In this document: piece by piece, positions 320-52,078 of the stretch
Layout of the letters: every line of letters begins with the position of its first letter
How positions within the stretch are numbered: position 1 is the stretch's first letter
Source: Candidatus Methanophagaceae archaeon GoMg1
Lineage (GTDB): Archaea > Halobacteriota > Syntropharchaeia > Alkanophagales > Methanospirareceae
NCBI GenBank assembly: GCA_013180605.1
Contig: QBUL01000188.1
Location: forward strand, 1-56,762
Direction of reading: 5' to 3'
Length of the DNA: 56,762 bases
The notes under the pieces: model-generated
What the model was told of the DNA's origin: nothing
The model's database searches: none
What the model saw: only the letters and a program-made list of their open reading frames with translations
Position numbers and translations under genes: made by a program

Positions 320-485
320 ATAAATTATGGACGCAGATTAACGCTCGTGGGCTCTGCCCACGTCCCCGCAAGCCCAGAAATGGCTTAATTAACACAGATG
401 ATAAGAATCAACAAACACGGTTAAACAAAAATAAATCTGCGTAAATCTGTGTCTTAAATACAAGGAAGTTATACTTTATATACAA
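320..485 (+). promoter_or_regulatory. Intergenic terminator-to-promoter cassette (left module interrupted by element C2; right module with TTAAATA box) upstream of the tldD/pmbA-like gene
   Basis: aaataaattatggacgcagattaacgc [C2] taattaacacagatgataag ... aaataaatctgcgtaaatctgtgtcttaaatacaaggaagttatactttatatacaat. The right module ends 6 nt before ATG 492. Confidence 0.65.
346..386 (+). repeat. Double-hairpin repeat element, copy C2, nested inside the cassette left module
   Basis: cgtgggctctgcccacgtccccgcaagcccagaaatggctt splits a cagattaac repeat that is uninterrupted in other cassette copies. Confidence 0.7.
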
Positions 486-491
486 TAAAAA

Positions 492-1877
492 ATGCTCGAC
501 ATCATGCATAAAGGTCTGAAAAAGGCGTTGGAAAGCTGCGACCAGGCGGAGATTTATGGAGAGTGTGGCGATGTTTTAAGCGTTGACCTTGAGCAAGAAG
601 AAGTAAAAAAGGTGAAGCATGTTAAAAGCACCGGTATTGGAGTACGAGTAGTAAGAGGAAAAAAAATCGGGTTTTCATACACTACCGCTTTGGAAGACGC
701 GAGAATAGAAGAATGCGTGGAGCATGCAATAAAACAGGCGAAGGTATCCGAGCAAGACACGCATTTTCACGGCTTACCGGGGGCAGAAACGTCAAAGCAG
801 GGATACACGAAACCGGAAAGAAGTTTTGACCCGCGCATAACTGGACTGCTTGAGTGTGGAAGCGAGGATGCGATACAATATTGCAAACGGATGCTGAATG
901 GCGCGAAAGAGTATAAATTGAGCAAAAGCGTAACGTGCACGCCAACAGAAGGCAGCTTCGCCGCGGCTCGCGATGAGACATATATCCTGAATTCCGAAGG
1001 TATTGAAACGAGTGATACCGGCACGTACGTCTCTGCGTGGCTAATGGTTGTGGCAAGTGAAGCAGGCGAAGCAAGCGGTAGCGGAGGCGGAGAGGAGATT
1101 TCAGGATACGAGGGCAAGGTAAGCAGAATGCTCACGGGCATAGATTTTGAATGGATAGGCAGGGAAGCGGTGAAAATGGCTGTGGACTGTTTTGGTGCTA
1201 AGAAACTAAAAACGAAGGAGATGCCTGTTGTTTTCTCGCCACGTGCAGTACAAAACCTTCTGGCTTATACCTTGATTCCGCAACTGAGCGCGGAGAACGT
1301 GCAGCGTAAACAATCGCCGTATCACGGTAAAAAAGGGCAGGAAATAGCTTCTGAAATTCTTACTGTTGTGGACGATGGCACGATGCAGGGTGGTGTAAAT
1401 AGCAGAAAAATGGATGGCGAAGGCGTTCCTGCACAACCTACGAAGTTGGTAGAAAATGGGGTGCTAAAAAATTTCCTCTATGATTCGTACACCGCTGGTA
1501 AAGACGGTGTGGAAAGCACAGGTAACGCAATAAGAGGCTTCAGCAATTTGCCAACCCCGGGAGCAACGAATTTTATTATAAACGCAGGAAGCAAAGCTTC
1601 TAAGGAAGAGATGTTCGGCGAAATACGTGAAGGATTGTTTGTAAATGACGTGATAGGTGCGCATACAGCTTCACGTGCATCCGGCGATTTCTCCGTCGTT
1701 GCACAGAATTCTTTTGGCATTAAAAAAGGCGAGTTGTATCCGGTTACGCAGGTGATGCTCGCAGGCAACATGCAAGAGATATTGAAACACATGGAAATGG
1801 TTGGGAACGATGCAAGGCAGATTTACAGTGTCGTTTCTCCTTCTGTTAAGGTGTCGAAGGTGCAGGTTGTTTCTTAA
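492..1877 (+). CDS. TldD/PmbA-family metallopeptidase
   Basis: 461-aa ORF. Its length and C-terminal motifs (GDFS..., G...P, MLAGN...L) are typical of the PmbA/TldD family. An alternative ATG at 504 fits the promoter spacing better. Confidence 0.8.
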   Translation: MLDIMHKGLKKALESCDQAEIYGECGDVLSVDLEQEEVKKVKHVKSTGIGVRVVRGKKIGFSYTTALEDARIEECVEHAIKQAKVSEQDTHFHGLPGAETSKQGYTKPERSFDPRITGLLECGSEDAIQYCKRMLNGAKEYKLSKSVTCTPTEGSFAAARDETYILNSEGIETSDTGTYVSAWLMVVASEAGEASGSGGGEEISGYEGKVSRMLTGIDFEWIGREAVKMAVDCFGAKKLKTKEMPVVFSPRAVQNLLAYTLIPQLSAENVQRKQSPYHGKKGQEIASEILTVVDDGTMQGGVNSRKMDGEGVPAQPTKLVENGVLKNFLYDSYTAGKDGVESTGNAIRGFSNLPTPGATNFIINAGSKASKEEMFGEIREGLFVNDVIGAHTASRASGDFSVVAQNSFGIKKGELYPVTQVMLAGNMQEILKHMEMVGNDARQIYSVVSPSVKVSKVQVVS

Positions 1878-1923
1878 TTTAAGTGCCCACTGACTCACGA
1901 TTAGGTTGGAGCAGTTTCAGATA

Positions 1924-2811
1924 TCAAAATTGCTTACTTACCTTCTTATGAGCAGCCACCACTTTAGCTCTAAAATTCTTGAGGAGCTTCGCCGCTGATC
2001 CCTCTTGTTTTAATAATTTTAATAACCACTTTTCCGTAGGTTCTGGACTATGCTCCCAAGAGTTTAGCTGGTCGTTTATCGCAATAATGTAAGTCAAGTA
2101 CTGTTCAGCTAATTTGAAGAATGACGGGTCTTCATCTACATAGCGATTTGTTATCAACAATTCGGCTGCCGACACTCTAAAACGATAGGTAATGAACGCA
2201 CCTTCCTCAGGGTTTTCCTGGTTATATCGAGCTTGATCAGCAACACCTTTTAGAACACTCAAATTTCCACTGCACTCTGATAGCACCGCGTCTAGCCGGC
2301 GAATTGCCTCATCTCGACGAAAAATCTCAAACAGGGTCCCTCGACCGGAAAGGGAATCCAGCACATGGCTATCAGGCCTATCAGAATGCACAAAACAATC
2401 TTGGATAGCTTCCTTGAAACGTTTACGAAAATCCTCCATCTTCAGGTGATCCTTTGGATAATAGAAGAGAGTGCCTTTTCCACCAATATCGAAAGGAAGC
2501 TGCGTTCCCTCTTCTGCGATCGTAATTGTACCATGCTTAAAACTTTGGCGAACCCCTAGCTCCCAATAAACATTAGGATTATTGTCTGTGAGGTCTGTAA
2601 CTACCACACGAGAAACAACAAGATCAGTAATGATTTCTCTCAAAATATCCCCACGCATCGCCTTTGAGCGGCGGACTTTGAGCTTCGGGTTCTCCTCGAT
2701 AAGGGGCTTCAAGAAACCTTCGAAATGTTTCGTCCAGTAGTTTTCAGTATGTTCATCTGTCGTTTTGCTAAACGGCATGATCACAAAGCAAATTTCTCGA
2801 TTTGTTGACAC
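1924..2811 (-). CDS. Hypothetical protein with an N-terminal TIR-like / nucleoside 2-deoxyribosyltransferase-like domain and an unknown helical C-terminal domain
   Basis: N-terminus ICFVIMPFS ... VVVTDLTDNNPNVYWELGVRQSFKHGTITI matches the FVxMPF ... NxNVxxExG signature of the NDT/TIR-like Rossmann families. The C-terminal ~140 aa were not recognised. Confidence 0.5.
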   Translation of the reverse strand: MSTNREICFVIMPFSKTTDEHTENYWTKHFEGFLKPLIEENPKLKVRRSKAMRGDILREIITDLVVSRVVVTDLTDNNPNVYWELGVRQSFKHGTITIAEEGTQLPFDIGGKGTLFYYPKDHLKMEDFRKRFKEAIQDCFVHSDRPDSHVLDSLSGRGTLFEIFRRDEAIRRLDAVLSECSGNLSVLKGVADQARYNQENPEEGAFITYRFRVSAAELLITNRYVDEDPSFFKLAEQYLTYIIAINDQLNSWEHSPEPTEKWLLKLLKQEGSAAKLLKNFRAKVVAAHKKVSKQF

Positions 2812-2925
2812 TTTAGTCCCCCTTCCTATCTTCTATCACTTATTTATCTATTTGGTTCTTATAAAGGTTTCGGTGCAGACTATTTGCTGTGCAAAAAAAA
2901 ACGTTCTCAAGAAGAAAAGCTTACC

Positions 2926-3100
2926 AAAAACCTTCCTTTAAAAAAGAAAGCTTTACCAACAACTTTTTTACCCATGTGGGGCTCCGCCCCACGACCCCGC
3001 AAGCCCTGTAAGGGCTTAGTAAAAAACTTGACTAAAAACAATCTCTTATTTTTTCTTTTAGCACAGGTTTTCTTTTTTAAAAAAAAAAAGAAAAAGTGTT
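2926..3100 (+). repeat. Two-palindrome A/T-rich repeat element, copy B1 (carries nested C3)
   Basis: aaaaccttcctttaaaaaagaaagctttaccaacaac ... ttttcttttagcacaggttttcttttttaaaaaaaaaaagaaaaagtgtt. Same architecture at 14385-14471, 21390-21482 (reverse), 28538-28586 (half) and 54708-54866 (reverse). Confidence 0.7.
2975..3017 (+). repeat. Double-hairpin repeat element, copy C3, nested in B1
   Basis: gtggggc-tcc-gccccac, then gaccccgc, then aagccct-gta-agggctt. Both stems keep pairing through paired substitutions or insertions relative to C1. Confidence 0.7.
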
Positions 3101-3535: not shown

Positions 3536-3606
3536 AAAAAATAAATCTGCGTAAATCAGTGTAAATCTGTGTCTCAAATAGAAGGAAGCTATACTTTATA
3601 TACAAT
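3536..3606 (+). promoter_or_regulatory. Promoter cassette, right module only
   Basis: aaaaataaatctgcgtaaatcagtgtaaatctgtgtctcaaatagaaggaagctatactttatatacaatc. Lies 32 nt before ATG 3638. Confidence 0.6.
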
Positions 3607-3637: not shown

Positions 3638-3847
3638 ATGAGTATTGCAAAGCAGCAGGTTATTAACTTGATTAAGGAACTTCCGGAGAAAATAGATATT
3701 GATGAATTGATGTATCGTCTTTACCTTAGACAAAAGCTCGAGGCTGCTGAGGAAGATGTCCGTGAAGGTCGTCTCATTTCTCATGAGGAAGTTATGTCCG
3801 TAGTACATGGACGGCAGTTACTCGAAGAACAGCCTAACTACCAGTGA
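3638..3847 (+). CDS. Small antitoxin-like protein (addiction-module component type), no adjacent toxin
   Basis: 69 aa. The pattern LIKELPEK..IDELMYRLYLRQKLE.AEEDVREGRLISHEEV resembles small type II antitoxins. AGGTGG ribosome-binding site upstream. Confidence 0.4.
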   Translation: MSIAKQQVINLIKELPEKIDIDELMYRLYLRQKLEAAEEDVREGRLISHEEVMSVVHGRQLLEEQPNYQ

Positions 3848-3850
3848 CAT

Positions 3851-4019
3851 GGCACAGTCTAAAAATCAAGTGATTTATCACCGCCGAGAGCGCCGAGACC
3901 ACAGAGTTTTAAGACTGTTTCAATCGTTGCTTATGTTTTTTTGGTGCCTCTGCGTTCTCCGTGTGCTCTGCGGTGAAATTTAAGGATATAGCAATTTCAC
4001 TGGAAAATTAGATAGTGCC
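3851..4019 (+). mobile_element. MITE-like element, copy 1 (~169 bp)
   Basis: Termini ggcacagtctaaaaat ... aaaattagatagtgcc are inverted repeats. The whole element is the reverse complement of 52967-53125 with scattered mismatches. Confidence 0.65.
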
Positions 4020-11030: not shown

Positions 11031-11091
11031 TTTCTGCGTAAATCCTCTAAATCTGCGTCCTAAATAGGTAGAAGTTATACTTTAATATACC
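11031..11091 (+). promoter_or_regulatory. Promoter cassette, right module
   Basis: tttctgcgtaaatcctctaaatctgcgtcctaaataggtagaagttatactttaatatacc. Lies 20 nt before ATG 11112. Confidence 0.6.
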
Positions 11092-11111
11092 ACAACTACT
11101 TTTTCTTTTCT

Positions 11112-12095: not shown

Positions 12096-12170
12096 AAATA
12101 AATCTATAGTCATTCCAATAATAAATTGCAAATAATGAACCACGAGATTTCGCGAGATTAACACAAGAAA
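12096..12170 (+). repeat. Cassette left-module variant (F1) after the purM stop
   Basis: aaaataaatctatagtcattccaataataaattgcaaataatgaaccacgagatttcgcgagattaacacaagaaa. The reverse complement is homologous to 32861-32927. Confidence 0.6.
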
Positions 12171-12223
12171 TGGTAGTTAATAGAGGATAAAATCACTAAT
12201 AGAACGCTGAAACTTGATTGTTA

Positions 12224-13573
12224 TTATTGTTCTCTCGTGGAAATCTGTGTAATCTTGTGGTTAATAATTTTCGTTATCTTTTTAATGCATTCCTCTACGC
12301 CTATTTTATCTTGCTCTCCCGTCTCTAAATTTCTCACTGTTACTTTCCCTTCTCTTATTTCAGTTCTGCCCACAAGCACGGCAAACGAAGCATTAAGGGC
12401 ATTGGCATAAGATAACTGAGCGCTCAGACTCCGGTTCATCACGTCTATATACGTGGGAATGTATTCTCTCAGCTTGGACGCTATTTTTATCGCCTCTTCA
12501 ACTACATCTGCCGAGTCTGCATTTTTTTCGCGTATCGGCACTACCGCTACCGATACTACTCCACCTCGCTTCAAATCCGATGTTTCATGAGGGAATAGTT
12601 CTGCTAATCGGTCAAAGCCAAAAGCAAAACCCGTAGAAGGCGTGTCATCACCACCAAACAAAGTAGCCAGCCGATAGGAACCGCCACCGCATATCTGATT
12701 CTGTGCGCCTAACCTGCCTCCCGTTTCGTATATCTCAAATACCATTCCCGTGTAATAATCCAGACCACGGGCTATTCCGGGGTTTAACGTATATACAACG
12801 CCATAATAATCGAGGAGTTCCAGCAGCATCCCCAATTCCTTCGCCGCATCGCTGTCAGAAACAATTATTTCGCGCTCACGTGCTTCCTTTAGTGCATCCT
12901 TACCTTTTACCTTTACCTTTAAATCCACCAGGCTTATCAAATCATCAATCAAGTCCTCTTTTGCACCCGTAGCACGCAAAAACCTGATTACCTCTTCTCT
13001 TTCTCCTTTGTCTATTAACCTCATCACTCCGTTTATCTTGTCCACCTCAACATTTGCCGCTCGTAATACTTCTCTTATTAGACCTACATGACCCACGTGC
13101 AGCTCTGCCTTTATGTGTATGCCTAAACCCTCCAAGATATAGTAAGCAAGTGCGATTATTTCCGCTTGCGCCTCCGGCCGGTCAGACCCGATTATCTCAG
13201 CACCAAACTGCCAGAACTCCCGGTAACGCGACTTCTGCGGCTCTTCATACCGGAAGCAATTGCCGAAATAATAAACCTTCGTCGGTTTCGGCGCCATCTT
13301 CAGCTCGTTAACGTACATTCTTATCACAGGAGCAGTAAGCTCAGGTCTTAGTGCTAAATGCCTGCCACCCTTGTCGCGGAATTCGTACATTTCATTCAGG
13401 ATTCCCTCGCCGGATTTAACCGTGAACAGTTCAGAGCGCTCAAAACTGGGTGTTCGTATCTCTCCATAGCCCCATTTCTCCGCGATGTCACGCATCCGCG
13501 CTTCCATTGTTCGTCTCTTCCGCATCTCCTCAGGCAAGAAATCTCGTGTCCCCCGGGCTCTTTCTATTCGCAT
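12224..13573 (-). CDS. hisS: Histidyl-tRNA synthetase
   Basis: RGTRDFLPEEM, class II motifs (LRPELT, FRYE.PQ..RYREF) and GGGSYRL. Start trimmed to ATG 13573 (MRIERARG). Confidence 0.93.
   Translation of the reverse strand: MRIERARGTRDFLPEEMRKRRTMEARMRDIAEKWGYGEIRTPSFERSELFTVKSGEGILNEMYEFRDKGGRHLALRPELTAPVIRMYVNELKMAPKPTKVYYFGNCFRYEEPQKSRYREFWQFGAEIIGSDRPEAQAEIIALAYYILEGLGIHIKAELHVGHVGLIREVLRAANVEVDKINGVMRLIDKGEREEVIRFLRATGAKEDLIDDLISLVDLKVKVKGKDALKEAREREIIVSDSDAAKELGMLLELLDYYGVVYTLNPGIARGLDYYTGMVFEIYETGGRLGAQNQICGGGSYRLATLFGGDDTPSTGFAFGFDRLAELFPHETSDLKRGGVVSVAVVPIREKNADSADVVEEAIKIASKLREYIPTYIDVMNRSLSAQLSYANALNASFAVLVGRTEIREGKVTVRNLETGEQDKIGVEECIKKITKIINHKITQISTREQ
12229..12272 (-). repeat. 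Repeat element E1, lying inside the 3' end of hisS
   Basis: gaaaattattaaccacaagattacacagatttccacgagagaa (gene strand). Copies at 22336-22381 and 32694-32737 are non-coding. Here it encodes the tail KIINHKITQISTREQ*. Confidence 0.6.
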
Positions 13574-14342: not shown

Positions 14343-14357
14343 AAGGGCTTCTCACAA

Positions 14358-14530
14358 AATGAGTTATAGACACAGATTAACACAAACCTTTCTTTCAAAA
14401 AGAAAGCTTTACCAAAGAAATTTGTTTTTCTTTTAGCACAGGTTTTCTTTTTTTGAAAAAGAAAAAGTGTTGCGTAAATCAGTGTAAATCTGTGTCTTAA
14501 ATAGAAGGAAAATTATACTTTTGCAATCAA
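14358..14530 (+). promoter_or_regulatory. Composite cassette: left module, nested B2 element (14385-14471), right promoter module
   Basis: gagttatagacacagattaacacaa + aaacctttctttcaaaaagaaagctttaccaaagaaatttgtttttcttttagcacaggttttctttttttgaaaaagaaaaagtgtt + gcgtaaatcagtgtaaatctgtgtcttaaatagaaggaaaattatac. Confidence 0.65.
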
Positions 14531-21501: not shown

Positions 21502-22200
21502 TTACTTTAACTGCACAAATTCCTTCTTTATCTTGTTCGCATATAGATGAGCGATTCGCGTGGGTTCAGGTAGCTTATGCTTACGGATGCAATTTCTTGT
21601 CAGCTGCAGCGAACTTTGTAGCGATATTTTATGCCCTGGCGCTACGATTAGGGGTCTACAGCCCTTTTTACTCTTGAGATAATATCCTATTTCTCTACCT
21701 TTGTATTTTATCATACGCGCTTCGCCTTCGGTCATCGGCACTTCACCACTGCCACACAGAAGGTTCTTTGCCACACCCACGGTCGCTACGTCTAGAACAA
21801 CACCTACATGCGTGGCTAATCCCGCAAACCTCGGATGGTTTACTCCTCCGCCATCTATTACTAACAGGTTGGGCTTGGTTGTGTTTTCAAGTGCATGAAA
21901 AGCGTCTATTATGGCTGGCGCTTCTCTGAACGAAAGAAGCCCGGGGATATAAGGGAAATCCACAGGCAGCACCGAGTATGAATAATTGACAAATCTCATG
22001 GATGGGTATTCGAGCACTACAACCGCAGATATTATTTTCTCTTGTCTATCTTTATTTTCAGTATTGTTTTTTGATTCGTAAAAGAAAGCCTGGTCTGCAC
22101 CTGCGATTAGTTTTAAGCCTTCTAAGCTCAGTTTATCTTCTATTAGCGCTTTTGATGCGATTTCTCGCTGTATGCGATACAGTTGTTCGGTGGTTTTCAT
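21502..22200 (-). CDS. nfi: Endonuclease V
   Basis: IAGADQAF, PYIPGLLSFREAP, LLVIDGGGVNHPRFAGLATHVGV and VGVAK. Start trimmed to ATG 22200 (MKTTEQLYRIQ). Confidence 0.9.
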   Translation of the reverse strand: MKTTEQLYRIQREIASKALIEDKLSLEGLKLIAGADQAFFYESKNNTENKDRQEKIISAVVVLEYPSMRFVNYSYSVLPVDFPYIPGLLSFREAPAIIDAFHALENTTKPNLLVIDGGGVNHPRFAGLATHVGVVLDVATVGVAKNLLCGSGEVPMTEGEARMIKYKGREIGYYLKSKKGCRPLIVAPGHKISLQSSLQLTRNCIRKHKLPEPTRIAHLYANKIKKEFVQLK

Positions 22201-22332
22201 TGTATATAAAGTATAATTTAAGTTTGACATTGCTGATCTTAACCACAGATTGCGCAGATTACACAAATTTTGCACTTTGCATTTTGTTTTGTCTGTGTTA
22301 ATCTGCGTTAATCTGTGTCCATAATTTATTTT
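22201..22332 (-). promoter_or_regulatory. Intergenic cassette (left and right modules) abutting the nfi ATG
   Basis: Gene strand: aaataaattatggacacagattaacgcagattaacacagac ... gtgtaatctgcgcaatctgtggttaag ... cttaaattatactttatataca-ATG. The right module has a 10-nt deletion relative to consensus. Confidence 0.6.
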
Positions 22333-22335
22333 TTC

Positions 22336-22381
22336 TTGGTCTCGTGAAAATCTGTGTAATCTGGTGGTTAATAATTTTCGG
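22336..22381 (-). repeat. Repeat element E2
   Basis: ccgaaaattattaaccaccagattacacagattttcacgagaccaag on the minus strand, 20 nt downstream of the Mut7-C gene stop. Confidence 0.6.
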
Positions 22382-22400
22382 TATGAAACAACAGGCTGCC

Positions 22401-28522: not shown

Positions 28523-28537
28523 TTCTTCTTATTATTA

Positions 28538-28586
28538 TTTGTTTTTCTTTTAGCACAGGTTTTCTTTTTTCTAAAAAGAAAAAGTG
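28538..28586 (+). repeat. Two-palindrome repeat element, half copy B4
   Basis: atttgtttttcttttagcacaggttttcttttttctaaaaagaaaaagtgtc, abutting the DUF350 stop codon. Confidence 0.6.
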
Positions 28587-32802: not shown

Positions 32803-32927
32803 CTTATTGTATACTAAACTATAGCTTCTTTCTATTTAAGACACTGATTTATTTTCTATTTTCTTGTGTTAATCTCGTGAAATCTCGCGGTTTATTAATT
32901 GCAATTTGTTACTGGAATGACCATAAT
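32803..32927 (-). promoter_or_regulatory. Intergenic cassette (left-module variant F2 plus right promoter module) between cooC and the COG1900 gene
   Basis: Minus strand: attatggtcattccagtaacaaattgcaattaataaaccgcgagatttcacgagattaacacaagaa ... aaataaatcagtgtcttaaatagaaagaagctatagtttagtatacaataag. Confidence 0.6.
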
Positions 32928-32935
32928 ATACCCCC

Positions 32936-33858: not shown

Positions 33859-34005
33859 TTACTTCCCTCTGTGACTGGATTTCATTCTCAAATCCTTTGA
33901 CCCGCATTTCCTACATCTCGTCGCTCTGATCGCATTCCTTGCATTGCAGTCCATGCATATTTTCACACGGAAGAGTCTTGCTTCCGCCTCTGGGAATCTT
34001 GCCAT
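33859..34005 (-). CDS. rpl40e: 50S ribosomal protein L40e
   Basis: 48-aa ORF missed by the 60-aa ORF cutoff: [48 protein letters not shown]. CxxC...CxxC zinc ribbon. GAGGAGAGG 11 nt upstream. Confidence 0.85.
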
Positions 34006-34116
34006 TTTCGGTTCTTACCTCTCCTCAGTATATCTACTCTACAATCCTGTATATATCTAGTGCATAAAAACCTTTAAATAATTTCACAAATAAAGGAAAG
34101 ATAAAAAACTAAATTG

Positions 34117-34245
34117 TTGACACAGATTAAGAACGCAGATTAACACAGATAGATGATAAAAATTAACCGTGTTCAACGTAAATAAATCAGCGTAAATCAG
34201 TGTTAATCCGTGTCTTAAATAGAAAGAAGTTACACGTTATATACA
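34117..34245 (+). promoter_or_regulatory. Complete intergenic cassette abutting the asd ATG (leaderless configuration)
   Basis: ttgacacagattaagaacgcagattaacacagatagatg ... taaataaatcagcgtaaatcagtgttaatccgtgtcttaaatagaaagaagttacacgttatataca-ATG. TTAAATA lies at -31 to -25 from the ATG. Confidence 0.7.
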
Positions 34246-35301
34246 ATGAAAAAAATAAAAGTAGGGGTATTAGGTGCGACCGGAAGCGTAGGGCAGCGAT
34301 TTATGCAGCTTTTGGACGGACATCCCTGGTTTGAACTCGAATCGCTGTTTGCTTCTGAACGAAGTGCGGGTAAGAAATACCGCGAGGTATCGAAGTGGTT
34401 TCTTCCCTATGAGATGTCCGCGGAAGCAGCGGAGATGGTAGTGCAATCGCTGAACGATGTGGATGCTTCAAAGAACAAAGACATCTCAATTATGTTTTCT
34501 GCTTTGCCTGGCTCGGTTGCAAGCGAGGTAGAGAAGAGATGTGCACAGGCAGGATATTGCGTGGCAAGTAATGTCTCGGTGCATAGAATGGAGCCTGATG
34601 TGCCTCTGGTCATTCCTGAGATAAACGCCGACCACTTAGCGTTAATCGAGATGCAAAAAGAGAAGAGGGGGTGGGATGGATTTATCATAACAAATCCTAA
34701 CTGTTCGGCCATCGTCATGACGTTGAGTTTGAAACCGCTGATGAGATACGGGATAAAAGAAGTGCGGGTGTCAACCATGCAGGCGGTATCGGGTGCGGGA
34801 TATGCAGGTGTGCCGTCAATGGCGATTCTGGATAACGTGATACCGTTTATAGAAAGCGAAGAAGAGAAGATGGAAAGTGAACCGCTGAAGATTCTCGGCA
34901 CAGTGGAAGAAGGTTCAGGAATAAAAAACGCCGCGTTCAACGTGTGTGCTTCTTGTCATCGAGTTCCGGTGATGGATGGACATACCGAGGCGATATGGGT
35001 AAAGTTTGAGGAAGGCGTAACGGAAGAAGAAGCTAAGAAGGCGTTTAATGACTTCACCACCGACATAAAAACACCTTTTGCTCCCGATAAGCCTATAATA
35101 CTGCGTGAGGAGCGGGATAGACCGCAGCCCAGGTTAGACTGTGATGCCGGGAGGGGTATGAGTATATCAGTAGGGCGAATAAGAGCAGGAAGAATGAAGA
35201 ATGAGGTGAAGTACATTGCACAGGGTCACAATACAGTACGAGGTGCTGCTGGTGCGTCCATATTGAATGCTGAAGTACTGGTGGAAAGGAAATACGTATA
35301 A
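34246..35301 (+). CDS. asd: Aspartate-semialdehyde dehydrogenase
   Basis: KVGVLGATGSVGQRF, NPNCS active-site Cys, QAVSGAGY and HRVPV...GH. Confidence 0.92.
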   Translation: MKKIKVGVLGATGSVGQRFMQLLDGHPWFELESLFASERSAGKKYREVSKWFLPYEMSAEAAEMVVQSLNDVDASKNKDISIMFSALPGSVASEVEKRCAQAGYCVASNVSVHRMEPDVPLVIPEINADHLALIEMQKEKRGWDGFIITNPNCSAIVMTLSLKPLMRYGIKEVRVSTMQAVSGAGYAGVPSMAILDNVIPFIESEEEKMESEPLKILGTVEEGSGIKNAAFNVCASCHRVPVMDGHTEAIWVKFEEGVTEEEAKKAFNDFTTDIKTPFAPDKPIILREERDRPQPRLDCDAGRGMSISVGRIRAGRMKNEVKYIAQGHNTVRGAAGASILNAEVLVERKYV

Positions 35302-37528: not shown

Positions 37529-38380
37529 ATGGACGAGAATTACTACCAATATATAAGAGGATTCTTTGGAAAATGGGCATCGTTCTATAATTTTATTGCT
37601 TTGCCTTTAACCGGCATAAGGAATAAGGTTGCAGACATGGTTGACTCAAAAGACAAAATAAAGATTCTGGACGTCTGCACGGGAACCGGGACACAGGCTT
37701 TTGCGTTTGCGAAAAAGGGTTATGAAGTCGTGGGGATTGATTTGTCAGAAGAAATGTTGCAGGTGGCTAAGAAAAAGAGCAAATACGGAAATGTGCGATT
37801 TGTGATGGCAGATGCAACTAAAATGCCATTTGAACCCGTTTATTTCGACTTTGCATGCATTTCTTTTGGACTGCATGAAATGCCACACGAGGTCAGACAC
37901 CAGGTGTTGGACGAAATGAAAAGAGTTAGCGAGAAAATAATCGTTGTTGACTATCACATTCCGAAGGACAGGTTGCATAGATGGCTGCACGTGTCTTTTG
38001 CATCACTTTACGAGAGCAAGTATTACAGAGATTTTGCAAAACGAAATCTTGAGGAATTGTTGCGAGAACACGGTTTTCGTGCGGTCAAAGAAGCTTACGG
38101 GCTGATGGATTTTGTTAAGATATTTGTGTGTGAGCGGAAATCGTTTGAGGGAAAACAAGAAAATAAATCGTTGACACAGATTAACACAGACAAGATGAAA
38201 CGAGCAATGCCGTTAAAAATATGCCAGCCAGCCCAACAAAAAAGAAAAAATCAGTGTAAATCAGTGTCTCAAATAGAAGGCGGTTATACTTTATATACAA
38301 GGATAAAAATGGAAGACATATTATTAATAATATCTCTGATCTTTGTTGGGCAAACTTTCTATGGTAAGGTAATAATATGA
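37529..38380 (+). CDS. Class I SAM-dependent methyltransferase (UbiE/COQ5-like) with a repeat-encoded C-terminal extension
   Basis: ILDVCTGTGTQA, VGIDLSEEML, ISFGLHEM. The fold ends near 38117. The last ~87 codons read through cassette 38161-38300 because no stop is met. Confidence 0.7.
   Translation: MDENYYQYIRGFFGKWASFYNFIALPLTGIRNKVADMVDSKDKIKILDVCTGTGTQAFAFAKKGYEVVGIDLSEEMLQVAKKKSKYGNVRFVMADATKMPFEPVYFDFACISFGLHEMPHEVRHQVLDEMKRVSEKIIVVDYHIPKDRLHRWLHVSFASLYESKYYRDFAKRNLEELLREHGFRAVKEAYGLMDFVKIFVCERKSFEGKQENKSLTQINTDKMKRAMPLKICQPAQQKRKNQCKSVSQIEGGYTLYTRIKMEDILLIISLIFVGQTFYGKVII
38161..38300 (+). promoter_or_regulatory. Intergenic cassette upstream of the dtxR/feoA-feoB operon (lies inside the extended methyltransferase ORF)
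   Basis: aaataaatcgttgacacagattaacacagacaagatg ... aatcagtgtaaatcagtgtctcaaatagaaggcggttatactttatatacaa. Confidence 0.6.
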
Positions 38381-41436: not shown

Positions 41437-41468
41437 ATGATGATAAAAATGATTAATAATAGAAAAAC

Positions 41469-41590
41469 AAAATAAATTATAGACACCGATTAATGCAGAT
41501 TAACACAGATAGATGGCAAAAATCAGCAATGTTAGACTCAAATAAATCCATGTCTTAAATAGAAATTAGGGGAGTTATAGTTTGTATACA
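41469..41590 (+). promoter_or_regulatory. Intergenic cassette (diverged right module) after the ZIP gene
   Basis: aaaataaattatagacaccgattaatgcagattaacacagatagatg ... aataaatccatgtcttaaatagaaattaggggagttatagtttgtataca. Confidence 0.55.
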
Positions 41591-41935
41591 ACGAAAAGAA
41601 AAAACATAAATCCATTCCCTTTGTTAGACCGCTTCCTATCCACCTAATATGTTTAGGTTTATTCTAAATTTTTATTGCTTATTTCAAGCAATGTTTCTTA
41701 TAGTTCACTATATAAAGTGGGGAATTTATTAGAAATGCATGAAAGCAATACGGTCTACCTATGCTAAGACGTATGCTATTGCCAATCCTCAATTTGAATC
41801 ATTAGCATAAAAGAAAACCACAGTTTAAAAAATCCGTGATGCACGGGGATTTGCCCGCACGCCTTCGGCGGCGCTAAAGGGTACTGTAGCAAGTGCATCA
41901 ATAAGTCCCATGAAGTGCTAAAAAGGGATAGAAAA

Positions 41936-45115: not shown

Positions 45116-47513
45116 AAAACTCGATAGCGGAATAGCATTGGTGTTTGTTGTGCTGATAATGGGATTGCTTGATGGCAGTCTAAGCGCGGCAGCAAATGAC
45201 GAGGCGGTGATAGTAAACGAAGAGGATCGCTCTAACATCAATTTCCCCTCGGATTATTATCCAAGTGACACGACCCCACCAACCATAGCAATAACTTGTT
45301 CTCCAGAAAATCCCACCGCTGATCAGCAGATTACTTTTAGCGCAACAGCATCGGATAGAAGTGGAATTAACAGAATCGAGATATTGGTGAATGCAAGAAA
45401 GGTAGAAGAATGCTTTGACTCAGGTTCATGTATCTATATTGGTGGACCTTATCCCGACTATGCAGGAACATCTGTGAGTTATGGTGCTAATGCCTACGAT
45501 AAGGCAGATAACAGAGCGTGGACTGGCTACAAGAGTGTGCACATATCCGAGCCAAGGGATATAATCCCTCCTACCGTAATAGACAATACACCAGTCGGTA
45601 CAGATGTCCCGGTTACAACGGAAATAACCATTACATTTAGTGAGTCTATGAACAAGGAATCGGCAGAAGACGCATTCTCCATTTATCCTGAAGTCACTGG
45701 CAGATTTGATTGGAATGAGAACATGATGATCTTCAAGCCACATTCTGATCTTGATCACGAAACAGAATACATTGTAAATCTCAAAGGTTCTGATCTTAAT
45801 CAATTCACAGGACAGCTTACACATCTCGAAGGAGGGAACTGGGGTGCAATGGATTTAGCAGAAAACATCATGGTAAGATCATACAACTGGGAATTTAAAA
45901 CCAACTCTCCTGAACGCATACCACCGACCGCTATAATATCTGCACCCTCAACGGAAATAAATGTGGGTGAAGGTATGATTTTCAGTGCGGAAGCGTCCAG
46001 CGACCGGGATGGTAAAATCATTTCTTACGATTGGGACTTTGGTGATAGTAATACCGGTGCAGGAATAAGCGTAGAACACACATATCCTCACAGCGGGCAT
46101 TATACAGTCACACTCACGGTAACGGATAACGATAAGTTATCTGACACCGACACAGTGGATATAAGCGTTACTACACCAGCTCTTTCTGTTTCAATCTCTA
46201 CAAATCCTATGCCCTCTGGTGAATCAGACGAGATAATAGTTCAAGTCTTCTCAGATGGCAATCCCGCAGCTGGTGCTAATGTGTATCTCTCATCCACACT
46301 CGGCAGTCTCTACCCAACTGAAGGGGGGACCGATGAAGATGGTGTGTTTGTTTCGACTTATACAGCACCACTCGTGTCTACCACTCAACGGTATACTATT
46401 TCTGCTATGGCGGAAAAAGAGGGATACGAAGAAGGAATAAATACCGTTTCGGATTCGATTTTTATTGAAACAATACCAGCTCTTTCTGTTTCAATCTCTA
46501 CAAATCCTATGCCCTCTGGTGAATCAGACGAGATAATAGTTCAGGTCTTCTCAGATGGCAATCCAGTAGCTGGTGCTAATGTGTATCTCTCATCCACACT
46601 CGGCAGTCTCTACCCAACTGAAGGGGGGACTGATGAAAGTGGTGAATTTGTTTCGACTTATACAGCACCACTCGTGTCTACCACTCAACGGTATACTATT
46701 TCTGCCACGGTGGAAAAAGAGGGATACATAGAGGGAAAAGATTCTGTCCCGAATTCGATTTTTGTAGAGCAGCCGCCAATTACTACGCCAGCACCTGTGG
46801 TTACACCAATTCCAACGCCTGAAGAAACTCCCACACCTGCGCCAACACCACCTCCTTCACAGCCAATCGTTCCGATAGCGATAGCTGCGATAGCAGCAGT
46901 TACGGTTTTAATATATATGTTCAAAGTGAAGAAGCCGCCAGAGCCTCAACCAGGGAAAGAGAAGAAGAAGTCTGAACCAGATGAAGAAGAAAAGCGGCAA
47001 TATGGTTCAGTATCCGCAAGTTCTGATCCTGATGGTGCTGTGGTTTTATTAGATGGAGCATATCATGGTATATCGGCAATGAGAATGGATAACATCCCAA
47101 TAGGCCCTCACGTTGTTGTATTTGCAAAGTTCGGCTATTTCAAATGCGAAAAAAAGGCAATAGTTAACGCAAATCAAACAACCCATGTTCATTGCGATTT
47201 AACGGAAATACCGGAGATAAAACTGAAACTCTCAGCAGAACCTACCGAAATCCCTGCCGATGGGAAATCGAAATCCATGATAACGATAAGGATAGAAGAC
47301 AAGAATGAAATACCGATTCCTGTTCCAGAAGATATAATGGTAGAATTAGTAACAAATATTGGAAAGATAGAGAGTCCGGTCAGAATACCTGCTGGCAGAG
47401 CTTCAGTTACTGCGACTTTGACATCCTTCGCAGTCCAAGGAACTGCCACGGTAGAAGCAACGGCCGAATTCTTGAAAGGCAGCACAACCGTTGAATTTTC
47501 TCAATCTACATAG
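45102..47513 (+). CDS. Multi-domain surface protein (Ig-like, PKD, two Big-like repeats, Pro/Thr linker, TM helix, PEGA-like and Ig-like C-terminal domains)
   Basis: Signal peptide. The PKD motif is ISYDWDFGDSNTG...HTY..SGHYTVTLTVTDN. Linker is TPAPVVTPIPTPEETPTPAPTPPP. TM helix is IVPIAIAAIAAVTVLIYMF. The PEGA-like motif is SDPDGAVVLLDG...IPIGPHVVVFAKFGY. The start overlaps the radical SAM gene by 14 nt. Confidence 0.75.
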   Translation: MKMAKKLDSGIALVFVVLIMGLLDGSLSAAANDEAVIVNEEDRSNINFPSDYYPSDTTPPTIAITCSPENPTADQQITFSATASDRSGINRIEILVNARKVEECFDSGSCIYIGGPYPDYAGTSVSYGANAYDKADNRAWTGYKSVHISEPRDIIPPTVIDNTPVGTDVPVTTEITITFSESMNKESAEDAFSIYPEVTGRFDWNENMMIFKPHSDLDHETEYIVNLKGSDLNQFTGQLTHLEGGNWGAMDLAENIMVRSYNWEFKTNSPERIPPTAIISAPSTEINVGEGMIFSAEASSDRDGKIISYDWDFGDSNTGAGISVEHTYPHSGHYTVTLTVTDNDKLSDTDTVDISVTTPALSVSISTNPMPSGESDEIIVQVFSDGNPAAGANVYLSSTLGSLYPTEGGTDEDGVFVSTYTAPLVSTTQRYTISAMAEKEGYEEGINTVSDSIFIETIPALSVSISTNPMPSGESDEIIVQVFSDGNPVAGANVYLSSTLGSLYPTEGGTDESGEFVSTYTAPLVSTTQRYTISATVEKEGYIEGKDSVPNSIFVEQPPITTPAPVVTPIPTPEETPTPAPTPPPSQPIVPIAIAAIAAVTVLIYMFKVKKPPEPQPGKEKKKSEPDEEEKRQYGSVSASSDPDGAVVLLDGAYHGISAMRMDNIPIGPHVVVFAKFGYFKCEKKAIVNANQTTHVHCDLTEIPEIKLKLSAEPTEIPADGKSKSMITIRIEDKNEIPIPVPEDIMVELVTNIGKIESPVRIPAGRASVTATLTSFAVQGTATVEATAEFLKGSTTVEFSQST
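46176..46775 (+). repeat. Exact-period 300-bp tandem duplication inside the surface-protein gene
   Basis: 46176-46475 and 46476-46775 both begin ccagctctttctgtttcaatctctacaaatcctatgccc. They differ at only a handful of positions over the first ~240 nt. Confidence 0.9.
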
Positions 47514-47582: not shown

Positions 47583-48077
47583 GTGTTTTTAATGACTTTT
47601 GATATGATTAACATGTTACCTGAAAGCATTCGGGTGATGTTAGTAGCGATGCTGCCATTTGCAGAACTTCGGCTTTCCATACCCATTGCGTTAGCGAACG
47701 AGATAACACCCCTGCAAGCTTTTGTTCTGTCCGTGATGGGGAACATGCTACCAGTGGTGCCTTTACTTCTTTTTCTCGACCCGGTTTCAAACTGGTTGAG
47801 AAGATACACTATCTTCGAGAGGTTCTTTAACTGGCTATTCTCAAGAACAAGGAGATATAATTATAACAACAGAATGGAGAAATACGGCTCTTTAGCGCTG
47901 ATACCTTTTGTTGCAATACCTCTACCATGGACAGGTGCGTGGACAGCGTGTGCAATTGCTTTTGTATTTGGCATTCGGCATAGATATGCGTTTTCAGCTA
48001 TTTTCGCGGGTGTAACAATAGCGGGGATAATAGTAACGCTGTCGTGCATGGGTGTTTTGGTGATGATAGGTGTGTAA
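47583..48077 (+). CDS. Small membrane protein (COG2426-like putative small multidrug export protein)
   Basis: MLPFAELRLSIPIAL motif and 4 TM. The likely ATG is at 47592. Confidence 0.55.
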   Translation: MFLMTFDMINMLPESIRVMLVAMLPFAELRLSIPIALANEITPLQAFVLSVMGNMLPVVPLLLFLDPVSNWLRRYTIFERFFNWLFSRTRRYNYNNRMEKYGSLALIPFVAIPLPWTGAWTACAIAFVFGIRHRYAFSAIFAGVTIAGIIVTLSCMGVLVMIGV

Positions 48078-48118
48078 ATAAATTATAGACGCAGATTAAC
48101 ACAGATTAACGCAGATGA
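48076..48118 (+). repeat. Cassette left module only, at a convergent gene junction
   Basis: aaataaattatagacgcagattaacacagattaacgcagatg, starting within the stop codon of the upstream gene. No right or promoter module follows. Confidence 0.6.
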
Positions 48119-50963: not shown

Positions 50964-51042
50964 AAAAAATATCGAGGAATCAGGTTGGGGTGGTTGATAA
51001 GACAAATCTTTAGAAAAGGTTTGATCCAAATCACCTGGGTTT

Positions 51043-51078
51043 CTTTGATCAAACTTCCTTTTTAAAGAAAGTTTGATT
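51043..51078. repeat. Palindromic repeat (gatcaaactt.ctttt.aaagaaagtttgat)
   Basis: ctttgatcaaacttcctttttaaagaaagtttgattg. Second copy at 54831-54866. Here it overlaps the last codons of the UPF0282 gene. Confidence 0.6.
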
Positions 51079-51930
51079 GTACAGCTCTCTCCTCCTCGCC
51101 TCCAGCATCTCCACTTCACGCCCGAGATATTCCGCCGCCGACGTCACCTTCACTTCCTTTTCCGCTGCGTATTCATACACCTCTGCTATCCGCTCCTTAT
51201 ACTTCAAGTCGCGCATGAAATGATGCTCTACCAGGATGGTTTTTACCGCGGTCTCTTTTATTATCTTCTTCATATTCGCTATGGACAGCTCCAAACTCTT
51301 CCTCGAATACCTGAAGCCAAGCATATATGTCATTGGTCCGTCTAATATAACGAAGTCAGGATTTTCTTGAACGATGAGTTCCACCTGCGCATCCACGGAA
51401 GGACCCTCAACGTCACTTGTAAAAACCATTTTCTCACCACCGCGTGAAATGCTCACTTCCACCACATACCCCAGCCGGGGATTTGTGCCATGATAAACGG
51501 GAGATGAGAATTTTATACCCGTAGAACCATGCTTAAATTCCTTCCCATCTGCGGTATCTATGGATTTCGGTATCGCTTTTAACTTATCCATGAAATAAGA
51601 AGCTCGTTTCTCCTGGCTTTTGTTTATCTTCTCCTTCGGATGTTTCAAGTAAACAATCTTGTCCTTGTATATATCAGGCTCATCGGGGTTGTGATGGTCG
51701 TAGTGGTAATGCGTAACCACAAGGACGTCACTTCGAGCGGTATGCTCTTTTATGTCTGCCCATGTCTCGTTCATCCTATGCTCTTCTATTGGATGCGGTG
51801 GTAACTTATATCTAACCGGTGCTAACGAAACGCCGGGGTCTATTAACACCGCCACGTCATCGGTCTCCACGAACGTCGCCATAGACCGCACACCAAAACT
51901 ATCAAACGCCAGCGGTTTTACCTTTAGCAT
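51049..51930 (-). CDS. UPF0282-family MBL-fold protein (archaeal)
   Basis: KPLAFDSFGVRSMATFVETDDVAVLIDPGVSLAPVRYKLPPHP and THYHYDHH. Confidence 0.75.
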   Translation of the reverse strand: MLKVKPLAFDSFGVRSMATFVETDDVAVLIDPGVSLAPVRYKLPPHPIEEHRMNETWADIKEHTARSDVLVVTHYHYDHHNPDEPDIYKDKIVYLKHPKEKINKSQEKRASYFMDKLKAIPKSIDTADGKEFKHGSTGIKFSSPVYHGTNPRLGYVVEVSISRGGEKMVFTSDVEGPSVDAQVELIVQENPDFVILDGPMTYMLGFRYSRKSLELSIANMKKIIKETAVKTILVEHHFMRDLKYKERIAEVYEYAAEKEVKVTSAAEYLGREVEMLEARRRELYNQTFFKKEV

Positions 51931-52078
51931 TGTGTATAAAGTACAGCCTCTTTCTATTTAAGACACTGATTAACACAGATTTAAAGTAGTTTAAATTTTG
52001 ACAAGTTGTTAATTGAATTTAATCAGGACAGTAGCGTCTGTGTAAATCTGTGAAATCTGTGTCTATGATAATTATCAA
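51931..52078 (-). promoter_or_regulatory. Complete intergenic cassette abutting the UPF0282 ATG (leaderless configuration)
   Basis: Minus strand: gataattatcatagacacagatttcacagatttacacagac ... aatctgtgttaatcagtgtcttaaatagaaagaggctgtactttatacaca-ATG. Confidence 0.65.

Follow-up and report, generated by a model that had tools for sequence, protein, structure and literature searches.

The ANME-1 (Methanophagales) metagenome scaffold analyzed here (56,762 nt, hereafter the window, with positions numbered from its first letter) raises the question of why the same non-coding sequence precedes unrelated genes, and whether it is a promoter, a mobile element or both. The first-pass annotation had described a right module at ten sites upstream of unrelated genes and a left module after the stop codons of preceding genes. 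An nhmmer profile was built from the ten cited right modules and run against the whole window. Exactly 10 full right modules were recovered (E = 5e-18 to 3e-07), one at each proposed position, and all of them were non-coding and directed at the downstream gene. The 10-mer TAAATCTGYG occurred 8 times where 0.23 were expected, a number reached by 0 of 100 shuffles. Copies of the cassette, ~60-150 bases in length, precede about one quarter of the window gene starts having upstream non-coding DNA. The proposed gene names agreed with Pfam (PmbA/TldD, AIR synthase-like, radical SAM, endonuclease V, HcyBio+CBS and metallo-beta-lactamase fold).

Table 1. Modules and composites of the cassette in the window. 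ACA-ATG denotes a module end (ACA) directly followed by the start codon.
Feature	Position	Strand	Context
Left modules (left-profile search)	316-344, 14356-14386, 34106-34151, 38159-38191, 41468-41511, 48073-48117; 22291-22332(-), 52035-52075(-)		
Left module of composite 314-485	316..344	+	Interrupted at 345-392 by nested GC-rich double-hairpin element
Right module, putative core promoter cassette	431..485	+	6 nt before tldD/pmbA ATG at 492 (Pfam PmbA_TldD); part of composite 314-485; E=6e-16
Right module, three 10-bp units, no left module	3545..3605	+	32 nt before 69-aa ORF; nhmmer E=5e-18
Right module, GCGTCCTAAATAGGTAGAAG subfamily	11034..11092	+	Directly after upstream gene's stop (11029); 19 nt before purM-like gene
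Variant left array without right module	12096..12180	+	Convergent junction after purM-like gene
Composite: left module, T-rich hairpin module (14374-14475), right module (14469-14530)	14353..14530	+	5' of radical SAM gene
Composite with rearranged, weakest-scoring right module (22200-22274, E=3e-07)	22200..22335	-	Ends ACA-ATG at endonuclease V start
Variant arm array (AACCACCAGATTACACAGATTTTCACGAGA)	22340..22384	-	Adjoins endonuclease V cassette; second copy at 12233-12277
Right module (32807-32851) and variant left array (32855-32935)	32807..32935	-	Between CbiA-like gene and HcyBio/CBS gene
Composite: left, spacer, right (34186-34246)	34103..34246	+	Ends ACA-ATG at asd start; divergent neighbour is a 48-aa rpl40e-like gene
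Composite: left, spacer type 2, right (38247-38300)	38157..38300	+	Within methyltransferase ORF read-through tail
Composite: left, spacer, right (41529-41591)	41466..41591	+	Followed by ~310 nt without assigned gene
Left module without right arm	48073..48117	+	Edge of ~800-nt segment absent from relative L037
239-nt composite: extra module, left, spacer, right (51930-51990)	51930..52170	-	From acetyltransferase (GNAT) stop to UPF0282/MBL ATG; ends ACA-ATG

Matches to a 22-nt core were detected in at least 103 contig stretches from at least 24 ANME-1-like genome assemblies, and none was found in the IMG/VR viral contigs. The counts given below are based on 136 right modules from the window and the fetched loci, where the genes are crude ORF calls; at least one window call is on the wrong strand. 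Copies within a genome were no more alike than copies between genomes (0.706 vs 0.698), therefore showing no sign of recent genome-specific bursts.

Eight canonical left modules, plus several variants, were identified in the window. The majority of left modules form the upstream portion of a composite that also contains a right module: a left module lay upstream, 14-157 nt apart, in 83 of 130 right modules, the other 47 were without a left arm, and many apparently orphan left modules have a degenerate right arm downstream. The canonical left-module sites of the first-pass annotation were confirmed, while those at 12096 and 32861-32927 proved to be a divergent variant (ACCACGAGATTTCGCGAGATTAACACAAG) that escaped the left profile. 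The variant left array has homologous copies in L004 (90%), L092 and L029, and the two variant arm arrays form repeat family D17 (93% identity). At 38161, where the left module was thought to follow a stop codon, there is no in-frame stop and the methyltransferase ORF reads through the cassette (CAA in the window, TAA in a relative). This composite ends 8 nt before a conserved 23-aa ORF, itself located 5' of dtxR/feoA-feoB. The left module had also been described as approximately the inverted complement of the right units, and the correspondence is only rough. The left units (CRCAGATTAA) have a fixed A at the variable position (129 of 134 units), whereas the right units (TAAATC(T/A/C)GYG) have T in 76, A in 62, C in 47 and G in 1, and the arms differ systematically in TTAATC vs TAAATC.

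The cassette has a mosaic structure: sub-elements are nested in it and its ends are sharp, including the left boundary. The nested GC-rich element of the first composite occupies the same left-module position in L092, L104, L077, L064, L018, L076, L041, L025 and L011, and this insertion at a fixed position defines subfamilies at many non-orthologous loci. The composite upstream of the radical SAM gene displayed 94-96% identity to copies at other loci (L026, L038, L062, L074).

Between tandem genes, 52 of 61 right modules were co-oriented with the genes (p=2e-8). Modules were depleted from coding frames: 22% of their midpoints fell in any frame free of stops for 150 codons or more vs 79% of random positions, and most of these 22% were upstream extensions of the downstream ORF. 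A same-strand ORF started within 400 nt downstream of 115 of the 136 copies; in 45 of these 115 the module ended at most 12 nt from the start codon (20 exactly at ACA-ATG, 25 at +1 to +12). Many ORFs at the module end lack an alternative in-frame start for 50-230 nt, as in asd, UPF0282 and nfi of the window, the next in-frame start of the endonuclease V gene being 182 nt away. The ACA-ATG fusion places TTAAATA at -31 to -25, the position expected for the archaeal TATA box of a leaderless mRNA, and this spacing, first remarked at asd and UPF0282, is shared by 20 of the 115 copies. The downstream genes are indeed unrelated, since 80 proteins matched 103 Pfam families with at most two members each, and three tRNA genes are preceded by modules as well (tRNA-Arg starts 8 nt and tRNA-Phe 21 nt after the module).

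Within the right module, TAAATC, GTC, TAAATAG and TATACTTTATATACAA were near-invariant, while the fifth base of the unit and positions -22 to -14 varied. This position-specific constraint was measured on 37 copies that had not been chosen through the scan pattern (chi2=373, df 52, p=5e-50). The expected BRE position lacks a purine-rich sequence. A canonical TTTATATA lies within the best-conserved block, and two start sites are possible because TTTATATA could be the true TATA box for genes with leaders longer than ~20 nt. Between close orthologues, modules were conserved to the same degree as third codon positions (0.84 vs 0.84; 21 pairs, some not independent), therefore purifying selection on individual copies was not demonstrated.

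Comparison of orthologous sites revealed gains and losses of cassettes. L073 alone carries a 186-nt cassette 5' of the CbiA-like gene, in place of ~12-16 nt; it is absent from the window, L106, L107 and the outgroups, and by all appearances was gained in a single lineage. No target-site duplication was seen at this clean insertion. Between rpl40e and asd, the window and L106 have both left and right modules, L073 has only the right module (the left module plus spacer, 34095-34179, is missing) and L107 has none, yet its asd is 94-95.5% identical. The outgroups L108, L119, L111 and L112 keep the synteny but have no cassette, and L109 and L110 carry a different subfamily, that of GCGTCCTAAATAGGTAGAAG. 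The GNAT-UPF0282 junction holds the 239-nt composite in the window vs 7 nt in L037 (a 17-nt intercistronic gap), and the same composite is present at another L037 locus. This filled/empty pair may reflect a gain or a loss. At one shared site the spacer type was swapped and the unit number was 2 vs 4. Copies were kept at orthologous sites of tldD in L003, with a 94% identical right module, of feoA in L042 and L086, and of HcyBio in L107.

It is probable, in our judgement, that ANME-1 intergenic DNA is made up in part of one mosaic copy-and-paste cassette family, the right module of which would be a complete archaeal promoter. A dispersed promoter-carrying element, as proposed by the first-pass annotation, is supported for the right module by its non-coding location, orientation, unrelated targets, spacing, and gains and losses. 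One to four 10-bp units (TAAATCHGYG) would lie at the position of the BRE or an upstream activating site, followed by a putative TATA box (TTAAATAG) between about -31 and -24, a purine-rich, variable stretch and a conserved AT-rich promoter-proximal or initiator block (TTATACTTTATATAC), with initiation at the terminal ACAA. Genes fused at ACA-ATG would give leaderless mRNAs, leaders elsewhere would measure from a few to ~100 nt, and tRNA genes may be transcribed in the same way. Archaeal upstream activating sites, for example the Ptr2 sites in Methanocaldococcus, are repeated protein-binding sites upstream of the TATA box. By analogy, the 10-bp units, which are likewise directly upstream of TATA, could recruit TBP/TFB; however, we know of no binding protein for TAAATCHGYG, and the activating sites known to us are gene-specific rather than carried by a dispersed cassette. 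The left module, the spacers, the GC hairpin and the T-rich hairpin would belong to the same element as upstream modules that a copy may have or lack.

How the cassette spreads is a guess, because its outer ends showed no terminal inverted repeats and neither a transposase nor a target-site duplication was found. New copies might reach new loci as whole composites without duplicating the target site, with short homologies (AAATAAA at the left end; TACAA, an A-rich tail or ATG at the right) as the likely sites of recombination or template switching, and existing copies would swap internal modules and alter their unit number.

A selfish MITE, in which the arms would be terminal inverted repeats, a transposase would act in trans and promoter activity would be incidental, appears unlikely. 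The inverted ~30-nt arms, the size of 110-200 nt without coding capacity, the sharp boundaries, nested sub-elements and subfamilies, one copy with two left-type ends (L088 4894/5027) and the potential of the canonical composite to form one long hairpin structure (-27.5 kcal/mol, z=-6.4) would all be in agreement with it. However, the arms are not terminal, because the conserved element continues past them, for ~45 nt on the right and ~15 nt on the left. The systematic arm differences, the right modules without a left arm, the strong orientation bias relative to genes and the lack of a target-site duplication at the clean insertion also conflict with a MITE, and no longer arm-bounded element with a transposase was detected in 0.7 Mb.

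Genomes whose flanking gene is 94-97% identical differ in whether they carry an entire cassette, outgroups with conserved synteny lack it, and one lineage has a full 186-nt mosaic, nested non-promoter modules included, at a new site. These results make it rather unlikely that the modules are an ancient, vertically inherited and non-mobile regulon, in which operator arrays and a promoter of one global regulator would be selected gene by gene, although the position-specific constraint with a freely varying base in the 10-bp unit, the same consensus across at least 24 assemblies, the equal similarity within and between genomes and the copies retained at tldD, feoA and HcyBio would suit such a regulon. 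The downstream genes have no common function, and convergent selection cannot account for the nested insertions that subfamily members at unrelated loci have in common.

The exact 10-bp period, with AAAT alternating with CNGYG, and the variation of the unit number from 1 to 4 might also indicate structural DNA, namely phased A-tract/GC units that are bent or position histones and organise chromatin beside promoters, and archaeal histones prefer such periodic sequences. This is improbable, as the conservation is sequence-specific, with TAAATC and GYG near-invariant and G excluded from the variable base, which exceeds the needs of curvature alone.

Also improbable is an element acting in RNA, whether as a hairpin in the 3' UTR that stabilises or terminates the preceding transcript, in the manner of REP/BIME or ERIC, or as a 5' leader or a signal for processing. 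Pairing of the canonical arms is possible and 68 of 115 left modules lie within ~45 nt of, or overlap, a same-strand ORF stop codon, but hairpin stability varies among copies (z=-6.4 to -1.0), own arms pair no better than those of different copies (-21.7 vs -21.9 kcal/mol, p=0.61), only 37 of the 81 composites have outermost units that are complementary, right modules are found alone, 5' of tRNA genes and against start codons, and an Rfam search gave no match. Archaeal transcription is known to terminate at oligo-T. The earlier view of the left module as a 3'-end signal was not supported, as the canonical composite has no sense-strand T-run of 4 or more and its arms do not co-vary as a hairpin; plausible terminator sequence occurred only in the subfamily with the separate T-rich hairpin module.

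The mosaic promoter cassette favored here resembles several known systems. Putative mobile promoters (PMPs; Matus-Garcia, Nijveen and van Passel, 2012, as summarised in PMC3575422) are nearly identical non-coding stretches, 50 nt or longer, upstream of unrelated genes. Like the ANME-1 cassette, they recur within a genome and are common to related taxa, with an unknown mode of movement; they occurred mostly in pairs and their promoter status was untested (PMC3575422), whereas one ANME-1 family accounts for about one quarter of the 5' regions in the 57-kb window. The cassette further differs in its archaeal TATA-to-start geometry, modularity, occurrence in many species of one order and filled/empty orthologous sites. 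Correia elements (CREE/NEMIS) of Neisseria are also dispersed, ~100-200 nt long, directly upstream of genes and equipped with inverted arms, and their strong promoters, possible co-transcription and strain-specific presence/absence were counted as likenesses (PMC10969869). However, they are MITEs with terminal inverted repeats, TA duplication, sigma-70 promoters and an IHF site (PMC10969869), while the ANME-1 cassette shows no duplication, is conserved beyond both arms, and displays a putative archaeal TATA promoter, strict orientation toward genes and exact start-codon fusion. BIME/REP of E. coli, BOX of pneumococci and ERIC are likewise intergenic, consist of few modules in varying order and number, and in some cases affect transcription or mRNA stability, but they are mainly palindromic RNA/DNA hairpins after genes, unlike a directional putative promoter in which pairing is not maintained. 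The intergenic repeats of halovirus HF2 are archaeal, 29-58 bp long and contain AT-rich promoter motifs, but belong to a single viral genome (PMC8707807), whereas the ANME-1 cassette is chromosomal, longer and mosaic, with no IMG/VR match. Because related genomes show gain, loss and reshuffling of the cassette, promoters in ANME-1 seem to spread like a mobile element.

The right module, the putative promoter part of the cassette, was recognized at all ten sites named in the first-pass annotation. These ten sequences aligned over about 60 nt, and their own profile recovered exactly ten full copies in the window (E=5e-18 to 3e-07), together with weak reverse matches that corresponded to left arms. 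The TAAATCTGYG unit was observed eight times in the window against 0.23 expected, and the gene names given to the flanking regions were concordant with Pfam. Eight canonical left modules, the upstream part of the cassette, were confirmed, whereas two other assignments turned out to be a divergent variant of the arm array. The window has 43% G+C and lies in a 76.6-kb metagenome scaffold (ENA ERZ23497743, LASO19-1 scaffold_5). Cassettes make up about 1.6 kb of its approximately 6.7 kb of non-coding DNA and precede 9-10 of the 37 ORF-called genes whose 5' non-coding sequence is 50 nt or longer. The coordinates of the associated features are collected in the table.

A total of 136 full right modules were detected in the window and in loci fetched from related genomes (about 0.7 Mb). 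Their consensus was (TAAATCHGYG)1-4 TC TTAAATAG AAGGAAG TTATACTTTATATACAA, often followed by TAAAAAA. Among the 37 copies that lay outside the scan-pattern selection, variation was strongly uneven across positions (chi2=373, df 52, p=5e-50). TAAATC, G.GTC, TAAATAG and TATACTTTATATACAA were near-invariant, while the fifth base of every unit and the purine-rich stretch 3' of the TATA were free to vary. A second right-module subfamily displayed the sequence GCGTCCTAAATAGGTAGAAG. Of 130 right modules, 83 were preceded at 14-157 nt on the same strand by a left module, AAAATAAATTATAGAC(RCAGATTAAC)n, the spacing peaking at 31-38 and 82-87 nt, and the other 47 had no left arm. All of the listed composites were mosaics of a left arm, one spacer of two types, optional hairpin modules and a right module, with a sharp left boundary at AAAATAAAT. 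The optional parts were a T-rich hairpin module and a GC-rich double hairpin nested in the left arm at one fixed position. The double hairpin occurs alone and also, nested at that position, at many non-orthologous loci in other genomes, and looks like a separate small repeat family. The whole element is small (110-250 nt), non-coding and multicopy, with filled and empty sites.

Features of the window and of one related locus that accompany the cassettes, or were noted beside them
Feature	Position	Strand	Observation
GC-rich double hairpin	52-111; 345-392; 2962-3021		CGTGGGCTCTGCCCACG ... GCAAGCCCnGAAAGGGCTT
T-rich hairpin module	2918-3100; 14374-14475; 21391-21470; 28537-28592; 54691-54866		TTTGTTTTTCTTTTAGCACAGGTTTTCTTTTTTTGAAAAAGAAAAAGTG, plus AAACCTTTCTTTCAAAAAGAAAGCTTT
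Repeat of about 175 nt	3841-4019; 52965-53129 (inverted)		Also in fetched loci L034, L037 and L077; long imperfect inverted arms (TCACCGCCGAGAGCGCCGAGACCACAGAG ... CTCTGCG..GCGGTGA); fold -36 kcal/mol, z=-2.3; sequences related to these arms lie beside some cassettes
Divergent variant of left-arm array	12096; 32861-32927
Long direct repeats	16191-16558/18716-19080; 19412-20239; 46170-46768		Pairs 81-92% identical; 46170-46768 pair inside a surface-type PKD/Big-domain gene, others within or across large ORFs
rpl40e-like ORF	33862-34005	-	48 aa, looks like ribosomal protein L40e, divergent from asd; missing from the gene calls of the public scaffold; upstream sequence conserved at all asd loci
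Methyltransferase ORF	37529-38380	+	Runs through the entire cassette; tail of about 70 aa
Small hydrophobic ORF	38309-38380	+	23 aa (MEDILLIISLIFVGQTFYGKVII), between cassette and dtxR/feoA; conserved in two comparable related genomes; the L086 locus stops part-way through it
Stretch past a cassette	41592-41914		About 310 nt without convincing ORF or Rfam match; the cassette might drive a small RNA or small protein that is missing from the annotation
Segment missing from L037	48078-48878	-	Apparent metallo-beta-lactamase-like fragment on minus strand (TPGHT motif by eye); 3' end of the small multidrug-export gene upstream differs between window and L037
Rejected ORF call	52289-52876	+	Call withdrawn; the stretch holds CM_2 and GNAT, both minus-strand genes
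asd start in L107	~2470-2503 of L107		asd ATG directly after 'cctttaaata'; state unlike cassette-bearing genomes and outgroups

An exact scan for the 22-nt core AATCNGTGTCTYAAATAGAARG, with one genome per prokaryotic species, matched at least 103 contig stretches from at least 24 assemblies, which were told apart by accession prefix. Among the matches listed, nearly all carriers were labelled ANME-1 or Methanophagales, and the remaining labels were vague or probably wrong higher-level ones. One carrier contig labelled "Syntrophoarchaeum" was syntenic with the window and 86% identical to it. Several fetched loci likewise shared gene order with the window, at 86-95% nucleotide identity, which identifies the window as ANME-1 genomic DNA. 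More distant asd lineages had no module in 26 kb. The right-module density was 0.18 per kb in the window and 0.185 per kb in the scan-selected loci, the latter value being inflated because every such locus was picked for the presence of a copy. Both modules were absent from the IMG/VR viral contigs, and a virus-borne element was therefore rejected. A known RNA family or a tRNA was rejected as well, since Rfam 15 at the gathering score gave zero matches over the whole window and no tRNA genes were found in it.

The midpoints of the right modules fell in long open frames in 22% of cases versus 79% for random positions, most of the 22% being upstream extensions of the downstream ORF, and 52 of the 61 copies between tandem genes were co-directional with these genes (p=2e-8, from crude ORF calls). 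For 115 of the 136 copies, an ORF of 70 codons or more began on the same strand within 400 nt downstream. The start codon was fused exactly to the module end (ACA|ATG) in 20 cases, while 25 ORFs started between +1 and +12 and a further 32 between +13 and +30. For many of the closest-fused genes the next in-frame start lay 50-230 nt downstream, and the asd N-terminus MKKIKVGVLGATGSVGQR was kept in all orthologues. In the window and fetched loci together, cassettes precede protein and tRNA genes alike. Three tRNA genes followed modules, namely tRNA-Arg (8 nt), tRNA-Phe (21 nt) and tRNA-Thr, the last one preceded by a left-spacer-right-arm composite with a degenerate right module. The 80 sampled downstream proteins matched 103 Pfam families, with a maximum of two per family, and the downstream products included a ribosomal protein, LysRS, EPSP synthase and FTR.

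The archaeal core promoter contains an AT-rich TATA box centred about 26-28 nt before the transcription start, and -31 to -25 is its normal position. Since start codons and tRNA genes lie close to the module end, transcripts would begin at or before this 3' end. Therefore, TTAAATA would occupy -31 to -25 relative to the ACA|ATG starts, and the conserved TTTATATAC block would represent the promoter-proximal or initiator region. This agrees with the leaderless spacing first proposed for asd and UPF0282: in the 20 ACA|ATG copies, TTAAATA stops 24 nt short of the A of the start codon, which puts it at -31 to -25 if the mRNA is leaderless. The best-conserved columns were those of TTTATATAC, which lies at about -12 to -3, and of the CA/AA at the end of the module; they correspond to the AT-rich promoter-proximal element expected around -10 and to a pyrimidine-purine initiator. 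A purine-rich BRE was absent just upstream of TTAAATA, where the last 10-bp unit finishes with ATCNGTGTC, a sequence that is not A/G-rich. Judged from its sequence and position, the right module most likely acts as a promoter. It also contains a canonical TTTATATA, which was rejected as a general TATA box: for asd, UPF0282, nfi and about 40 others, the single usable start codon is found no more than 12 nt from the module end, and tRNA-Arg starts 8 nt past that end. This TTTATATA could be a second TATA box for genes with longer leaders. Logan contigs from the same sample were discarded as start-site evidence, as they break within the repeats.

Comparison of orthologous intergenic regions, as suggested in the first-pass annotation, revealed filled and empty sites. 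Upstream of a CbiA-like gene, a 186-nt composite (left module, hairpin, T-rich module, right module) replaced about 12-16 nt in the related locus L073 alone. The site was empty in the window, in L106 and L107 and, as flank mapping indicates, in the outgroups, and the empty site holds AAATAAA and GTACAA, which are similar to the cassette ends. No target-site duplication flanked this clean insertion or was found at the asd and UPF0282 junctions. In the rpl40e-asd region, left and right modules were present in the window and L106, and the right module only in L073. L073 is nearest to L106 (97% in asd), and the 85 nt that it lacks lie between direct repeats of AAATAAA. The cassette was absent from L107 (94-95.5% in asd), which has a canonical TTTATATA at -31 to -24 of its ATG. 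It was also absent from the outgroups L108, L119, L111 and L112 (77-84%), where synteny was kept, while L109 and L110 (84%) carried the other right-module subfamily. L113 and L114 are further relatives with no cassette.

The neighbours of UPF0282 were CM_2 and a GNAT acetyltransferase gene on the same (minus) strand. The distance from the GNAT stop to the UPF0282 ATG was 17 nt in L037, while the window displayed a 239-nt composite ending exactly at the ATG. At this site AUK217 carried a one-unit right module with the same diagnostic TATACACA variant as the window. The same composite of extra module plus cassette also occurred in L037, at a different locus. At the methyltransferase-feoA junction, cassette boundaries were common to three species; the spacer was of type 2 in the window and L042 and of type 1 in L086, and the unit number differed (2 vs 4). 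The methyltransferase stop is TAA in L086 and has become CAA in the window and L042, thus the ORF reads through the cassette in the window.

The proposal that the left module marks 3' ends was not borne out, as no terminator could be demonstrated and canonical left-spacer-right cassettes had no sense-strand T-run of four or more. In 68 of 115 cases the left module overlapped or lay close to the stop of an ORF on its own strand, and in 12 of these its TAA provided the stop; such closeness is expected whenever an element occupies the short gaps between tandem genes. Sense-strand T-runs of at least four occurred only in the T-rich module (14374-14475), which also stands alone at other gene ends. 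Its location at gene 3' ends and its T-runs on both strands make it a plausible bidirectional archaeal terminator. The left module at the convergent 48076 junction is indeed alone: this copy (48073), at the edge of an approximately 800-nt segment missing from the relative L037, is among about ten truly lone left modules. Most "orphans" were followed by a right arm with a degenerate or replaced core promoter.

A hairpin function in RNA or DNA was rejected for lack of co-variation, although the canonical copy folds well (-27.5 kcal/mol, z=-6.4; other copies as weak as z=-1.0). Pairing of arms from the same copy was no better than pairing across copies (-21.7 vs -21.9 kcal/mol, p=0.61), and the outermost unit pairs were complementary in only 37 of 81. 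The variable base was A in 129 of 134 left units, while the right units had T in 76, A in 62, C in 47 and G in 1. REP/BIME-type hairpin upkeep by complementary arms was thus not found, the variable base being fixed on the left and free on the right. A C/D-box sRNA in the spacer was rejected by eye, with a C-like GATGATA present and D boxes absent.

The closest concept to the ANME-1 cassette is the "putative mobile promoter" (PMC3575422). Its operational definition asks for 80% identity or more across a stretch of 50 nt or more 5' of non-paralogous genes. The cassette falls within this definition: composites shared 80-96% identity over 150-190 nt with copies at unrelated loci, and the downstream proteins were unrelated. 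Among characterised examples, the Correia element of Neisseria, a MITE that carries promoters, comes nearest (PMC10969869). The cassette resembles MITEs in being small, non-coding, multicopy and polymorphic for presence, but it differs in having no target-site duplication and no terminal inverted repeats. Its arms are internal, as conservation extends outward by about 15 nt past the left arm and by about 45 nt past the right arm. No autonomous element with cassette ends was seen in the approximately 0.7 Mb of fetched loci, and a full-length insertion sequence bounded by the arms was rejected, because these loci contained no such arm pairs. The archaea listed as having MITEs are Sulfolobus, Halobacterium, Haloquadratum and Desulfurococcus, and ANME-1 is not among them. 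Promoter-bearing intergenic repeats are described for an archaeal virus (PMC8707807). Our literature searches found no description of the cassette family in ANME-1.

New sites receive complete composites together with their nested non-promoter parts, which argues for copying over convergence. Orthologous modules were no more conserved than third codon positions (0.84 each), and copies were no more alike within than between genomes, so that no within-genome homogenisation was found. It follows that the diversity is old and shared and that single copies are not visibly protected in the short term. The copies averaged 86% identity to the consensus across genomes differing by about 30% at third codon positions. 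Together with the position-specific variation, we take this to mean function-dependent retention plus continual replacement. The cassette family is real, lineage-wide and evolutionarily labile, and most likely has a promoter role.

A broader reading has three parts, which together we regard as possible but rather doubtful. One standardised, self-propagating promoter cassette would drive a large share of ANME-1 transcription units, about a quarter of those in the window; the TAAATCHGYG arrays would dock a lineage-specific global factor or a specialised TFB/TBP; and duplication-free recombination would copy and paste the cassette, splitting operons and making leaderless genes by start-codon fusion.

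Much of the anaerobic oxidation of methane in marine settings is done by ANME-1 archaea. We know of no pure culture or genetic system for them, and to our knowledge the control of their transcription is almost wholly unknown. One cassette before many housekeeping genes provides a testable ANME-1 promoter model that specifies the TATA position, the start site and a leaderless class. The 10-bp unit is a candidate motif to fish out a global DNA-binding factor, with the trimers (TAAATCTGTG)3 and (CACAGATTAA)3 as candidate factor-binding sequences. Possible uses include a strong native promoter for future tools and better start-codon calling in ANME-1 genomes. Apparent operon splitting and exact start-codon fusion were seen between genomes 94-97% identical in the flanking gene, and the family would illustrate, with unusual clarity for archaea, how promoters can spread as separate units. 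If the three-part reading is true, it would mean that promoters evolve, and regulation is wired across the genome, in a way undescribed for any archaeon.
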